The position numbers and the translations under genes are program-made. A stretch of 64,000 bases of DNA from Escherichia coli (GTDB lineage Bacteria > Pseudomonadota > Gammaproteobacteria > Enterobacterales > Enterobacteriaceae): NCBI RefSeq assembly GCF_044647545.1, contig NZ_CP172818.1. One strand, written 5' to 3'. Positions 19,440 through 30,337 of this stretch are shown here, in pieces. Every line of letters begins with the position of its first letter. The stretch's first letter is position 1. The notes beneath the pieces are model-generated. The model searched no databases and had not been told where the DNA came from. It saw only the letters and a program-made list of their open reading frames with translations.

Positions 19440-20873
19440 ATGAATAAGAAATCGTTATGGAAGCTAATTCTGATATTAGCAATCCCATGTATTATTGGCT
19501 TTATGCCAGCTCCAGCAGGATTAAGCGAACTGGCGTGGGTGCTTTTTGGTATTTACCTGGCGGCCATTGTGGGGCTGGTTATCAAGCCTTTCCCGGAACC
19601 TGTCGTACTGTTAATTGCCGTCGCCGCATCGATGGTAGTGGTGGGTAACTTATCAGGTGGGGAATTTAAAACCACCGCTGTATTAAGCGGTTACTCTTCC
19701 GGTACCACCTGGCTGGTGTTTTCTGCGTTTACTTTAAGCGCCGCGTTTGTAACCACAGGCTTAGGTAAACGTATTGCCTATCTGCTGATTGGTAAAATTG
19801 GTAGCACTACCCTGGGTCTGGGTTACGTTACGGTATTTCTCGATCTGGTACTGGCTCCGGCAACACCGTCTAACACCGCGCGTGCGGGCGGCATCGTGTT
19901 ACCGATCATCAACAGCGTGGCAGTGGCTTTGGGATCAGAACCGGAAAAAAGTCCGCGTCGTGTTGGACATTACCTGATGATGTCCATTTACATGGTCACC
20001 AAAACCACCAGCTATATGTTCTTTACCGCAATGGCGGGGAACATTCTGGCGCTGAAAATGATCAACGACATTCTGCACCTGCAAATTAGCTGGGGTGGAT
20101 GGGCGCTAGCCGCCGGATTGCCTGGCATCATTATGCTGCTGGTCACCCCGCTGGTGATTTACACCATGTATCCGCCAGAAATTAAGAAGGTGGATAACAA
20201 AACCATCGCCAAAGCGGGCCTTGCCGAACTGGGACCGATGAAAATCCGCGAAAAAATGCTGCTCGGTGTCTTCGTGCTGGCGCTGCTGGGCTGGATTTTC
20301 AGTAAGTCACTGGGGGTTGATGAATCCACCGTGGCAATCGTTGTTATGGCGACTATGCTGCTGCTGGGTATCGTTACCTGGGAAGACGTGGTTAAAAATA
20401 AAGGCGGCTGGAATACCTTAATCTGGTACGGCGGTATTATCGGCTTAAGCTCCTTATTATCGAAAGTTAAATTCTTCGAATGGTTAGCTGAAGTCTTTAA
20501 AAATAACCTGGCATTTGATGGTCACGGTAACGTTGCTTTCTTCGTTATTATTTTCCTCAGCATCATCGTGCGTTATTTCTTCGCTTCCGGTAGTGCCTAT
20601 ATCGTTGCCATGTTACCGGTATTTGCCATGCTGGCGAACGTCTCCGGCGCGCCGTTAATGTTAACCGCGCTGGCACTGTTGTTCTCTAACTCCTATGGCG
20701 GCATGGTTACTCACTATGGCGGCGCGGCAGGTCCGGTCATCTTTGGCGTGGGTTACAACGATATTAAATCCTGGTGGTTGGTCGGTGCGGTACTGACGAT
20801 ATTAACCTTCCTGGTGCATATCACCCTCGGCGTGTGGTGGTGGAATATGCTGATCGGCTGGAACATGCTGTAA
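19440..20873 (+). CDS. ybhI: DASS-family (divalent anion:Na+ symporter-like) transporter
   Basis: 477-aa polytopic membrane ORF directly downstream of ybhH on the same strand. Confidence 0.9.
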   Translation: MNKKSLWKLILILAIPCIIGFMPAPAGLSELAWVLFGIYLAAIVGLVIKPFPEPVVLLIAVAASMVVVGNLSGGEFKTTAVLSGYSSGTTWLVFSAFTLSAAFVTTGLGKRIAYLLIGKIGSTTLGLGYVTVFLDLVLAPATPSNTARAGGIVLPIINSVAVALGSEPEKSPRRVGHYLMMSIYMVTKTTSYMFFTAMAGNILALKMINDILHLQISWGGWALAAGLPGIIMLLVTPLVIYTMYPPEIKKVDNKTIAKAGLAELGPMKIREKMLLGVFVLALLGWIFSKSLGVDESTVAIVVMATMLLLGIVTWEDVVKNKGGWNTLIWYGGIIGLSSLLSKVKFFEWLAEVFKNNLAFDGHGNVAFFVIIFLSIIVRYFFASGSAYIVAMLPVFAMLANVSGAPLMLTALALLFSNSYGGMVTHYGGAAGPVIFGVGYNDIKSWWLVGAVLTILTFLVHITLGVWWWNMLIGWNML

Positions 20874-24671: not shown

Positions 24672-24822
24672 AGGTTGCTCCGGGCTATGAAATAGAAAAA
24701 TGAATCCGTTGAAGCCTGCTTTTTTATACTAACTTTAGCGAAACGGGAAGGTAAAAAGACAAAAAGTTGTTTTTAATACCTTTAAGTGATACCAGATGGC
24801 ATTGCGCCATCTGGCAGAGTGA

Positions 24823-25299
24823 TTAACTAAACATCGCAGTAATCGAGGCACTCGCCAGAGAGTGAAAATGAACGTTAAACCCGACCATCGCGCCGCTGGC
24901 ACCTTCATCGACATCAATACGTTCTACATCCAGCGCGTGAACGGTAAAAATGTAGCGATGGGTTTCGCCTTTCGGCGGCGCTGCGCCATCGTATCCGGTT
25001 TTACCAAAGTCGGTACGCGTCTGCAAAACGCCGTCTGGCATTGCTACCAGACCAGAGCCAAACCCTTGCGGTAATACGCGGGTATCCGCGGGTAAATTAA
25101 CAACTACCCAGTGCCACCAGCCGGAGCCAGTTGGCGCATCCGGGTCGTAGCAGGTGACAACAAAACTTTTCGTTCCCACAGGAACATCATCCCACGCCAG
25201 ATGCGGTGAAATATTATCGCCATCGTAACCCATGCCGTTAAAGACATGACGATGTGGCAACTTATCGCCATCGCGTAAATCATTACTGATGAGTTTCAT
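24823..25299 (-). CDS. ybhB: PEBP/RKIP-family protein
   Basis: 158-aa ORF immediately downstream of bioA on the same strand; matches YbhB. Confidence 0.92.
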   Translation of the reverse strand: MKLISNDLRDGDKLPHRHVFNGMGYDGDNISPHLAWDDVPVGTKSFVVTCYDPDAPTGSGWWHWVVVNLPADTRVLPQGFGSGLVAMPDGVLQTRTDFGKTGYDGAAPPKGETHRYIFTVHALDVERIDVDEGASGAMVGFNVHFHSLASASITAMFS

Positions 25300-25357
25300 G
25301 AGCCCTCCTTTCTTGTTTGCAGAAAGTGTAGCCAGAAACCCTCACGCTGACTTCCCG

Positions 25358-26647
25358 TTATTGGCAAAAAAATGTTTCATCCTGCACCGCACGATTAACC
25401 GCTGCGGTCAGACGCTGCAACTGTTGCGGGAGAATAATATAGGGCGGCATCAGGTAAATCAGTTTGCCAAAAGGCCGGATCCAGACACCCTGTTCGACAA
25501 AGAATTTTTGCAGCGCTGCCATATTCACCGGACGAGTGGTTTCGACCACGCCGATTGCCCCCAGTACGCGCACATCGGCAACCATTTCGGCGTCACAGGC
25601 GGGGGCAAGTTGCTCGCGTAACTGCGCTTCAATAGCCGCCACCTGATGCTGCCAGTCGCCAGATTCGATAATCGCCAGGCTGGCGTTTGCTGCTGCGCAG
25701 GCCAGCGGATTGCCCATAAAAGTTGGCCCATGCATAAAGCAGCCGGCTTCGCCGTTACTGATGGTTTCCGCAACCTCGCGCGTGGTGAGCGTGGCGGAAA
25801 GGGTCATTGTGCCGCCGGTTAAGGCTTTACCGAGACACAAAATATCCGGCGCGATTTCTGCATGTTCACAGGCAAACAGTTTGCCGGTACGACCAAATCC
25901 GGTGGCGATCTCGTCGGCAATCAGCAAGATACCTTCGCGATCGCACATTTTGCGGATTCGTTTTAACCATTCCGGATGGTACATGCGCATCCCGCCTGCG
26001 CCCTGGACAATCGGTTCAATGATCACCGCCGCGATTTCATGACGATGCGCCGCCATCAGGCGGGCAAAGCCCACCATATCGCGCTCATCCCATTCGCCAT
26101 CCATGCGGCTTTGTGGAGCGGGAGCAAACAAGTTTTCTGGCAGATAGCCTTTCCACAGGCTGTGCATTGAGTTGTCCGGATCGCACACCGACATCGCGCC
26201 AAAGGTATCGCCATGATAACCATTGCGGAAGGTCAGAAAACGCTGGCGCGCTTCGCCTTTGGCCTGCCAGTACTGCAACGCCATTTTCATCGCCACTTCT
26301 ACCGCTACGGAGCCGGAGTCCGCGAGAAAAACGCACTCCAGCGGTTGCGGCGTCATTGCCACCAATTTGCGGCACAGCTCAATGGCGGGCGCATGGGTGA
26401 TACCGCCAAACATCACATGCGACATAGCATCAATTTGCGATTTCATCGCCGCATTAAGCTGCGGGTGATTGTAACCGTGGATCGCCGCCCACCAGGACGA
26501 CATACCGTCAACAAGGCGTCTGCCGTCAGACAAAATTAGCTCGCAACCTTCGGCGCTCGCCACCGGATAAACCGGTAGCGGGGAGGTCATGGATGTGTAT
26601 GGGTGCCAGATATGGCGTTGGTCAAAGGCAAGATCGTCCGTTGTCAT
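25358..26647 (-). CDS. bioA: adenosylmethionine-8-amino-7-oxononanoate aminotransferase
   Basis: Start chosen at [20 protein letters not shown] (429 aa); the longer ORF to 26758 would run through the bio operator. Confidence 0.95.
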
Positions 26648-26655
26648 AATCGACT

Positions 26656-26695
26656 TGTAAACCAAATTGAAAAGATTTAGGTTTACGAGTCTACA
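26656..26695. promoter_or_regulatory. bio operator (BirA binding site) in the bioA/bioBFCD divergent promoter
   Basis: About 40-bp imperfect palindrome ttgtaaaccaaattgaaaagatttaggtttacgagtctac between the divergent bioA and bioB starts. Confidence 0.8.
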
Positions 26696-26733
26696 CCGAA
26701 TTAACAACAAAAAACACGTTTTGGAGAAGCCCC

Positions 26734-27774
26734 ATGGCTCACCGCCCACGCTGGACATTGTCGCAAGTCACAGAATTATTTGAAAAACCGTTGCTGGATC
26801 TGCTGTTTGAAGCGCAGCAGGTGCATCGTCAGCATTTCGATCCTCGTCAGGTGCAGGTCAGCACTTTGCTGTCAATTAAGACCGGAGCTTGTCCGGAAGA
26901 TTGCAAATACTGCCCGCAAAGCTCGCGCTACAAAACCGGGCTGGAAGCCGAGCGGTTGATGGAAGTTGAACAGGTGCTGGAGTCGGCGCGCAAAGCGAAA
27001 GCGGCAGGATCGACGCGCTTCTGCATGGGCGCGGCGTGGAAGAATCCCCACGAACGCGATATGCCGTACCTGGAACAAATGGTGCAGGGGGTAAAAGCGA
27101 TGGGGCTGGAGGCGTGTATGACGCTGGGCACGTTGAGTGAATCTCAGGCGCAGCGCCTGGCGAATGCCGGGCTGGATTACTACAACCACAACCTCGACAC
27201 CTCGCCGGAGTTTTACGGCAATATCATCACCACGCGTACCTATCAGGAACGCCTCGATACGCTGGAAAAAGTGCGCGACGCCGGGATCAAAGTCTGCTCG
27301 GGCGGCATTGTGGGCTTAGGCGAAACAGTAAAAGATCGCGCCGGATTATTGCTGCAACTGGCAAACCTGCCAACGCCGCCGGAAAGCGTACCAATCAACA
27401 TGCTGGTGAAGGTGAAAGGCACGCCGCTTGCTGATAACGATGATGTCGATGCCTTTGATTTTATTCGCACCATTGCAGTTGCGCGGATCATGATGCCGAC
27501 CTCTTACGTACGCCTTTCTGCCGGACGCGAGCAGATGAACGAACAGACTCAGGCGATGTGCTTTATGGCTGGCGCAAACTCGATTTTCTACGGTTGCAAA
27601 CTGCTGACCACGCCGAATCCGGAAGAAGATAAAGACCTGCAACTGTTCCGCAAACTGGGGCTAAATCCGCAGCAAACTGCCGTGCTGGCGGGCGATAACG
27701 AACAACAGCAGCGTCTGGAGCAGGCGCTGATGACCCCGGACACTGACGAATATTACAACGCGGCAGCACTATGA
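26734..27774 (+). CDS. bioB: biotin synthase (radical SAM)
   Basis: 346-aa ORF with radical-SAM CxxxCxxC motif (CPEDCKYC); divergent from bioA across the bio operator. Confidence 0.97.
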
Positions 27775-28925
27775 GCTGGCAGGAGAAAATCAACGCGGCG
27801 CTCGATGCGCGGCGTGCTGCCGATGCCCTGCGTCGCCGTTATCCAGTGGCGCAAGGAGCCGGACGCTGGCTGGTGGCGGACGATCGCCAGTATCTGAACT
27901 TTTCCAGTAACGATTATTTAGGTTTAAGCCATCATCCGCAAATTATCCGTGCCTGGAAGCAGAGTGCGGAGCAATTTGGCGTCGGTAGCGGCGGCTCCGG
28001 TCACGTCAGCGGTTATAGCGTGGCGCATCAGGCGCTGGAAGAAGAACTGGCCGAGTGGCTGGGCTATTCGCGGGCACTGCTGTTTATCTCTGGTTTTGCC
28101 GCTAATCAGGCGGTCATTGCCGCGATGATGGCAAAAGAGGACCGCATTGTTGCTGACCGGCTTAGCCATGCCTCATTGCTGGAAGCTGCCAGTTTAAGCC
28201 CGTCGCAGCTTCGCCGTTTTGCTCATAACGATGTCACTCATCTGGCGCGACTGCTTGCTTCCCCCTGTCCGGGGCAGCAACTGGTGGTGACAGAAGGCGT
28301 GTTCAGCATGGACGGCGATAGTGCGCCACTGGCGGAAATCCAGCAAGTAACGCAACAGCACAATGGCTGGTTGATGGTCGATGATGCCCACGGCACGGGC
28401 GTTATCGGGGAGCAGGGGCGTGGCAGCTGCTGGCTGCAAAAGGTAAAACCAGAATTGCTGGTGGTGACTTTTGGCAAAGGATTTGGCGTCAGTGGGGCAG
28501 CGGTGCTTTGCTCCAGTACGGTGGCGGATTATCTGCTGCAATTCGCCCGCCATCTTATCTACAGCACCAGTATGCCGCCCGCTCAGGCGCAGGCATTACG
28601 TGCGTCGCTGGCGGTCATTCGCAGTGATGAGGGTGATGCACGGCGCGAAAAACTGGTGTCACTCATTGCGCGTTTTCGTGCCGGAGTGCAGGATTTGCCG
28701 TTTACGCTTGCTGATTCATGGAGCGCCATCCAGCCATTGATCGTCGGTGATAACAGCCGTGCGTTACAACTGGCAGAAAAACTGCGCCAGCAAGGCTGCT
28801 GGGTCACGGCGATTCGCCCGCCAACCGTACCTGCTGGTACTGCGCGACTGCGCTTAACACTAACTGCCGCGCATGAAATGCAGGATATCGACCGTCTGCT
28901 GGAGGTGCTGCATGGCAACGGTTAA
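27771..28925 (+). CDS. bioF: 8-amino-7-oxononanoate synthase
   Basis: 384-aa PLP-dependent acyltransferase ORF; start overlaps bioB stop (ATGA). Confidence 0.96.
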
Positions 28926-29667
28926 TAAACAAGCCATTGCAGCGGCATTTGGTCGGGCAGCCGCGCACTATGAGCAACATGCGGATCTACAGCGCCAGAG
29001 TGCTGACGTCTTACTGGCAATGCTCCCACAGCGTAAATACACCCACGTACTGGATGCGGGTTGTGGACCTGGCTGGATGAGCCGCCACTGGCGTGAACGT
29101 CACGCGCAGGTGACGGCGTTAGATCTCTCGCCGCCAATGCTTGTTCAGGCACGCCAGAAGGATGCCGCAGACCATTATCTGGCGGGAGATATCGAATCCC
29201 TGCCGTTAGCGACTGCAACCTTCGATCTTGCATGGAGCAATCTCGCGGTGCAGTGGTGCGGTAATTTATCCACGGCACTTCGCGAGCTGTATCGCGTGGT
29301 GCGCCCCGGAGGCGTGGTCGCGTTTACCACGCTGGTGCAGGGATCGCTCCCTGAATTACATCAGGCGTGGCAGGCGGTGGACGAGCGCCCGCATGCTAAT
29401 CGCTCTTTACCGCCAGATGAAATCGAACAGTCGCTGAACGGCCTGCATTATCAACATCATATTCAGCCCATCACGCTGTGGTTTGATGATGCGCTCAGTG
29501 CCATGCGTTCGCTGAAAGGCATCGGTGCCACGCATCTTCATGAAGGGCGCGACCCGCGGATATTAACGCGTTCGCAGTTGCAGCGATTGCAACTGGCCTG
29601 GCCACAAAAACAGGGGCGATATCCTCTGACGTATCATCTTTTTTTGGGAGTGATTGCTCGTGAGTAA
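28912..29667 (+). CDS. bioC: malonyl-ACP O-methyltransferase
   Basis: Start chosen at [14 protein letters not shown] (251 aa); SAM-MTase motif LDAGCGPG; overlaps the bioF 3' end. Confidence 0.93.
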
Positions 29668-30337
29668 ACGTTATTTTGTCACCGGAACGGATACCGAAGT
29701 GGGGAAAACCGTCGCCAGTTGTGCACTTTTACAAGCCGCAAAGGCAGCAGGCTACCGGACGGCAGGTTACAAACCGGTGGCCTCTGGCAGCGAAAAGACC
29801 CCGAAAGGCTTACGTAATAGTGACGCGCTGGCGTTACAGCGCAACAGTAGCCTGCAGCTGGATTACGCAACGGTAAATCCTTACACCTTCGCAGAACCCA
29901 CCTCGCCGCACATCATCAGCGCGCAAGAGGGCAGGCCGATAGAAGCATTGGTAATGAGCGCCGGATTACGCGCGCTTGAACAACAGGCTGACTGGGTGTT
30001 AGTGGAAGGCGCTGGCGGCTGGTTTACGCCGCTTTCTGACACTTTCACTTTTGCGGATTGGGTAACACAGGAACAACTGCCGGTGATACTGGTAGTTGGT
30101 GTGAAACTCGGCTGTATTAATCACGCGATGTTGACGGCACAGGCAATACTACACGCCGGACTGACTCTGGCGGGTTGGGTGGCGAACGATGTCACGCCTC
30201 CGGGAAAACGTCACGCTGAATATATGACCACGCTCACCCGCATGATTCCCGCTCCGCTGCTGGGCGAAATTCCCTGGCTTGCAGAAAATCCAGAAAATGC
30301 GGCAACCGGAAAGTACATCAATCTTGCCTTAATGTAG
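29660..30337 (+). CDS. bioD: dethiobiotin synthetase
   Basis: GTG start at 29660 gives (M)[16 protein letters not shown] (P-loop); overlaps bioC stop; 225 aa. Confidence 0.9.

Follow-up and report, generated by a model that had tools for sequence, protein, structure and literature searches.

The operator bioO of Escherichia coli K-12 is the closest described system for the locus examined here, and Otsuka and Abelson are said to have described it in 1978 as a 40-bp BirA operator between bioA and bioBFCD. When biotin rises above demand in K-12, BirA carrying biotinoyl-5'-AMP dimerises and places its two winged helix-turn-helix domains on the two arms of the operator. Published work gives the same picture of a 40-bp bioO that lies between bioA and bioBFCD and is bound by BirA carrying biotinoyl-AMP (PMC4382993, PMC5640590). 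Quantitative work on BirA and bioO, which deals with the coupling of enzyme activity, dimerisation and DNA binding, has practically all been performed on the K-12 operator. The biochemistry found in our literature search likewise used K-12 DNA, and the search returned no mention of a polymorphism in the operator, no printed operator sequence, no per-base operator mutation data and no measurement on an operator carrying the G described below. In the present study, a 64,000-nt stretch of E. coli DNA (hereafter the window) was analysed, and its bioO is an ordinary, already known element with a common natural allele.

The initial annotation had placed a bio operator at 26651–26695, and bioO, found at 26652–26691 with the sequence GACTTGTAAACCAAATTGAAAAGATTTAGGTTTACGAGTC, falls within these coordinates. 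It had also reported that the arms differ at one position, T versus C, which was confirmed both by the sequence and by a repeat finder. The latter returned 15-nt inverted arms at 26652–26666 and 26677–26691 that are 87% complementary across a 10-nt gap; within the outer 12 bp of the arms, the single mismatch lies at arm position 5, where T at 26656 stands against the complement of G at 26687. A pattern search with TYGTAAACC-N16-GGTTTACRA, tolerating up to two mismatches, gave one match in the 64-kb window, and none of 100 dinucleotide-preserving shuffles contained any match. The element consists of arms of the TTGTAAACC / GGTTTACAA type with 16 bp between them, together forming a 40-bp imperfect inverted repeat. 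It is located within the short intergenic region between the divergent genes bioA and bioB and extends over the core elements of both promoters and their start sites. Identity with the K-12 operator was not found, as 39 of the 40 bases are equal and 26687 is G in the window versus A in K-12. The operator with G at 26687 is an allele of the same bioO and no separate element. The features of the locus are collected in Table 1.

Table 1. Features of the bio control region and its genes in window coordinates
Feature	Position	Strand	Basis
bioO, 40-bp imperfect inverted repeat, predicted BirA-biotinoyl-AMP dimer site	26652–26691		Window sequence, repeat finder, pattern search; cf. PMC4382993, PMC5640590
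Left 12-bp arm, bioA-proximal, GACTTGTAAACC	26652–26663		12/12 positions invariant in 12 Enterobacteriaceae species among the matches listed
Right 12-bp arm, bioB-proximal, GGTTTACGAGTC, reverse complement GACTCGTAAACC	26680–26691		Window sequence, repeat finder
Polymorphic base, G in the window and A in K-12	26687		MG1655 alignment, allele counts
Predicted PbioB -35, TTGTAA	26655–26660	+	17-bp spacing to TAGGTT, mapped start 26691; invariant in 14 aligned sequences
Predicted PbioB -10, TAGGTT	26678–26683	+	8 nt upstream of mapped start; invariant in 14 aligned sequences
bioBFCD transcription start	26691–26692	+	Cappable-seq, EDL933 and RegulonDB K-12 transcription starts
Predicted PbioA -10, TAGACT	26688–26693	-	TAnnnT conserved in 14 sequences; fits mapped bioA start
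bioA transcription start	26680–26682	-	EDL933 and RegulonDB K-12 start-to-ATG distances (PMC10469882)
bioA coding sequence, ATG at 26647	25358–26647	-	ORF list, mapped ST648 annotation, MG1655 annotation
bioB coding sequence, ATG at 26734	26734–27774	+	ORF list, MG1655 annotation, mapped ST648 annotation
bioF (27771–28925), bioC (28912–29667) and bioD (29660–30337), co-transcribed with bioB	27771–30337	+	Mapped ST648 annotation, ORF list

Alignment with MG1655 (NC_000913.3 809100–809500), the check proposed in the initial annotation, showed that the window is a variant and not identical to the reference, the one difference in 161 aligned bases being the G versus A at 26687. In the same alignment, the K-12 derivative CJ236 and ordinary O157:H7 also carry A at the equivalent position. 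As a result, the outer arms match at 12 of 12 positions in the K-12 operator and at 11 of 12 in that of the window. The further suggestion of a strain-specific change did not hold, because 36% of complete E. coli genomes contain the G form exactly (1932 of 5406 for a 60-mer centred on the operator) and it also occurs in outgroups; the allele is already present in public genomes by thousands. The corresponding K-12 60-mer with A is exact in 3365 of 5419 complete genomes (62%), and the two haplotypes together account for 97.7% of genomes. G was read in ST648, the type strain ATCC 11775, Nissle 1917, the possum isolate A4, the atypical O157:H7 strain TR01 and two CDC STEC isolates, and STEC 2011C-4251 has G; A was read in MG1655, CJ236, O104:H4 C227-11, two ordinary O157:H7 strains and one O25:H16 strain. 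On the known population structure of E. coli, carriers of G presumably include phylogroups B2 and F, and carriers of A presumably include A, B1 and E. In an alignment of 11 E. coli sequences, polymorphism affects 231 of 2900 sites, and within the 86-bp intergenic region 26687 is the single site that varies.

The surroundings of the operator are those of a standard E. coli chromosome. Over 30 kb around bioO, identity with the chromosome of E. coli strain ST648 reaches 99.97%, with four mismatches and four gap openings, and no difference from ST648 was found across 2.9 kb. Gene order is the standard modE-modABC-ybhA-pgl-...-ybhC-ybhB-bioA, followed by bioBFCD-uvrB-moaABCDE. Several side observations were made on this neighbourhood. 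The ybhI gene (window 19440–20873) is an intact 477-aa open reading frame here and is annotated as frameshifted in the ST648 record, possibly through an assembly error of that record. In Nissle 1917 and A4, an InsQ/TnpB-family gene is annotated in the place of ybhB directly downstream of bioA (window-equivalent positions ~24800–25300). Genome searches in E. coli also recovered the bioA-bioB control region on two plasmid records and twice in at least one genome. In O157:H7 TR01 (NZ_CP033605.1 934330–937389, corresponding to window ~25140–28200), a G operator is accompanied by a bioA/bioB/bioF haplotype that lies 49 nt from ordinary O157:H7 over 2.9 kb, and ybhB has the protein accession normally seen in O157, a pattern suggestive of a local import of the bio haplotype by recombination beside the lambda attachment region.

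The direction of the change was considered using an outgroup sample obtained by a BioB scan of species-representative genomes, which covered at least 80 loci and listed 12 Enterobacteriaceae species; no Salmonella, Klebsiella, E. fergusonii or cryptic Escherichia clades are among the matches listed. Ten of these 12 species (E. albertii and 9 of the 11 others) carry the G form of the right arm (GGTTTACGA), the genera among the matches listed being represented by E. albertii, two Citrobacter, Pseudocitrobacter, Kluyvera, Superficieibacter and four others. The symmetric right arm with A was found in 2 of the 12 among the matches listed, both being Enterobacter-labelled genomes. All 12 positions of the left arm GACTTGTAAACC are invariant in the 12 species listed, and the outer three bases of the bioB-proximal arm vary among the same species. 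In these 12 species the bioA ATG is always 4–6 nt away from the left arm, so that this arm is probably under further constraint, both from the initiation of bioA translation and from its role as the PbioB -35 element.

E. albertii NBRC 107761 matches the window without a single difference for 246 nt (26577–26822), against a background divergence of 8% (233 differences in 2900 nt). This run takes in the bio control region together with the starts of both genes. Either extreme constraint or inter-species recombination would account for it, and E. albertii may therefore be a non-independent outgroup. In the genera beyond E. albertii, the flanks have clearly diverged and G is retained. Because an asymmetric right arm is the family norm among the species listed, an ancestral G is the most parsimonious reading; most likely, G at 26687 is ancestral and the perfect arms of K-12 are derived. 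The direction of change would then most likely be the reverse of that implied by the initial annotation, with the K-12 reference carrying a derived, symmetrising allele.

Base preference within the half-site bears on what the two alleles may do. Across 130 gammaproteobacterial half-sites among the matches listed, arm position 5 is T in 108 and C in 18, and 10 of the 18 listed C half-sites are Enterobacteriaceae right arms; half-site positions 6, 7, 9 and 10 were fixed by the search pattern and are uninformative on conservation. Judged from these counts, C at arm position 5 of the BirA half-site is a tolerated minority base. The repressor gene birA is present in 5420 of 5426 genomes and lies ~1.3 Mb from the bio locus in MG1655. 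Residues 1–69 of BirA, comprising the helix-turn-helix and wing, are the same in MG1655 and in CFSAN018748, a genome with the G operator, so that this comparison revealed no compensatory BirA change accompanying the G allele in the helix-turn-helix and wing. IHE3034 and O157:H7 LSU61 also share residues 1–69 with MG1655, and across six diverse BirA sequences residues 1–60 were altered only by T28S in one and by A12T with S59C in another. Among the solved structures matching BirA, no entry had a molecule name indicating bound operator DNA.

The position of 26687 relative to the two promoters was derived from published start sites and from conservation. To transfer starts between genome versions, a shift of 777 was applied, which is based on the older gene coordinates; it is supported by the fact that another listed start then falls at the moaA riboswitch. 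With this shift, the strong plus-strand start at U00096.2 808524 (score 778) in MG1655 Cappable-seq data (PMC4782308) maps to window 26691. The distance from start to ATG is 43 nt in EDL933 and 42 nt in RegulonDB K-12 data for bioB (PMC10469882), and 33 nt in EDL933 and 35 nt in RegulonDB K-12 data for the main bioA start (PMC10469882 supplementary file 6). On the minus strand, a TAnnnT at 26693–26688 has its T, A and final T invariant in 14 sequences, and its middle bases vary (TAGACT, TATACT, TAAACT and TAGGAT), which is the signature expected of the PbioA -10 element. A simple promoter scan detected no bio promoter; both bio -10 hexamers are weak matches to consensus, so the scan is uninformative here. 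The bioA and bioB starts are divergent and 9–11 bp apart, and each -10 element covers the start of the opposite promoter. Base 26687 thus sits at -4/-5 of PbioB and at -5/-7 of PbioA, within both discriminators and within the BirA right half-site.

Two other roles for the variant were considered and rejected. The G might have changed a PbioA -35 element (TTGTAA to TCGTAA on the minus strand), but the bioA start at 26680–26682 and the TAnnnT at 26693–26688 rule against this, and the base sits just downstream of the PbioA -10, outside any -35. It might also have altered the bioA leader RNA; however, 26687 is upstream of both main starts, in the untranscribed gap, and is absent from both main mRNAs, and the 36-nt bioA leader has the same fold in both alleles. 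Separately, EDL933 Cappable-seq data contain minor minus-strand starts at 11, 45 and 223 nt from the bioA ATG (window 26658, 26692 and ~26870), and the minor start at 45 nt would put the polymorphic base into RNA.

Taken as a whole, 26652–26691 is very probably the canonical bioO with an ancestral-type G at 26687, and this operator would be fully functional, with a right half-site at most modestly weaker than that of K-12. As established for K-12, a BirA-biotinoyl-AMP dimer occupying both arms would occlude two tightly interlocked divergent promoters. The G/A base forms position 5 of the right half-site and at the same time belongs to the discriminator of both promoters; given its position in the untranscribed gap between the starts, it would act only at the DNA level. 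G was most likely inherited from the Enterobacteriaceae ancestor, and A most likely arose within E. coli, where it now predominates (62% of complete genomes, including K-12, O157:H7 and O104:H4). The change to A would have made the outer 12-bp arms perfectly symmetric and left both discriminators with one G:C pair fewer. As most half-sites have T at this arm position, A should improve the right half-site, and K-12-type strains might show slightly tighter repression, a slightly higher output on derepression, or both. The effect of G versus A on repression is expected, on these sequence comparisons, to be at most modest. Nevertheless, it may be non-negligible, because no other base of the 86-bp control region varies within E. 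coli, and a site of no consequence would stand out there as an exception.

Four other accounts of the G in the window were weighed. A strain-private mutation of the operator-constitutive type, weakening BirA repression in this isolate, would fit the difference from MG1655 and its location inside a 12-bp arm. However, an allele that 1932 complete E. coli genomes share with 10 of the 12 Enterobacteriaceae species among the matches listed, and that occurs on unrelated flanking haplotypes within E. coli, is hardly private, and we regard this explanation as extremely improbable. We give no credence to a sequencing or assembly error in the window, as several independent complete assemblies match it over 241 bases and 1932 do so over 60 bases.

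The remaining two accounts concern the consequence of the polymorphism. It may be selectively neutral, with BirA and both promoters indifferent to the base and with frequencies reflecting only phylogeny and hitch-hiking. The high frequency of both alleles, the position of the base outside the most conserved core of the half-site, the lack of co-variation in the BirA DNA-binding domain and the natural occurrence of C at this arm position elsewhere, for example in Pectobacterium and Stutzerimonas left arms, are all in keeping with neutrality. Nonetheless, 26687 is the sole variable site of the 86-bp region although the flanking 2.9 kb is 8% polymorphic. Furthermore, the arm position holds only C or T across the family (C in 10 of the 12 listed) despite diverged spacers and outer right-arm bases, which suggests that the position is constrained. 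We consider neutrality to be not far short of an even chance. Alternatively, the derived A may be an adaptive re-tuning through arm symmetry and a lower discriminator G+C content, resulting in tighter repression, higher derepressed output, or both, such that the biotin set-point would not be the same in lineages with A (such as K-12, O104:H4 and ordinary O157:H7) and in those with G (such as Nissle 1917, ATCC 11775 and ST648). This is suggested by the majority of T at the half-site position (108 of 130 among the matches listed), by the location of the base in the discriminator of both promoters, by the rise of A to 62% of genomes and by its presence in two other, Enterobacter-labelled, Enterobacteriaceae lineages. 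However, its frequency may reflect heavy sampling of A-carrying lineages, and G persists in very successful ones. An adaptive A is a tentative possibility, distinctly below an even chance.

The joint proposition that the K-12 operator is derived and that major E. coli lineages differ, through the G/A polymorphism, in their biotin repression thresholds or bioA:bioB expression ratios is rather unlikely. If it were true, a cis-regulatory variant would be segregating naturally in one of the best-studied bacterial operators and would simultaneously affect a repressor half-site and the discriminators of two interlocked promoters. Should the alleles differ in affinity or promoter strength, constants determined with K-12 DNA would not be exactly transferable to lineages with G, among them Nissle 1917, the type strain and ST648. 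Comparative motif models based on K-12 would also overstate the symmetry of the site. Any effect of the alleles is likely to be small.

The E. coli K-12 bioO shares with the window its locus, length, left arm, 16-bp centre and promoters, and 160 of 161 bases around the operator, and it differs in having A where the window has G at 26687. The operators of E. albertii, Citrobacter, Kluyvera, Pseudocitrobacter and Superficieibacter agree with that of the window in the left arm GACTTGTAAACC, in a spacing of 16 bp and in an asymmetric right arm, which reads GGTTTACGA; those of other Enterobacteriaceae differ in a diverged central spacer, in the outermost right-arm bases and in the bioB leader, and E. 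albertii alone matches the window exactly among the matches listed. More distant BirA sites, in Pectobacterium, Pseudomonas and Vibrio, also consist of inverted GT(A/C)AAC-type half-sites, 14–16 bp apart, upstream of bioB and are, as a rule, asymmetric. In contrast to the Enterobacteriaceae, where the right half is GGTTTACGA, these genera have GGTTGACAG, which includes TTGACA, with a half-site spacing of 14–15 bp and a site that lies at least 100 nt from the bioB ATG.
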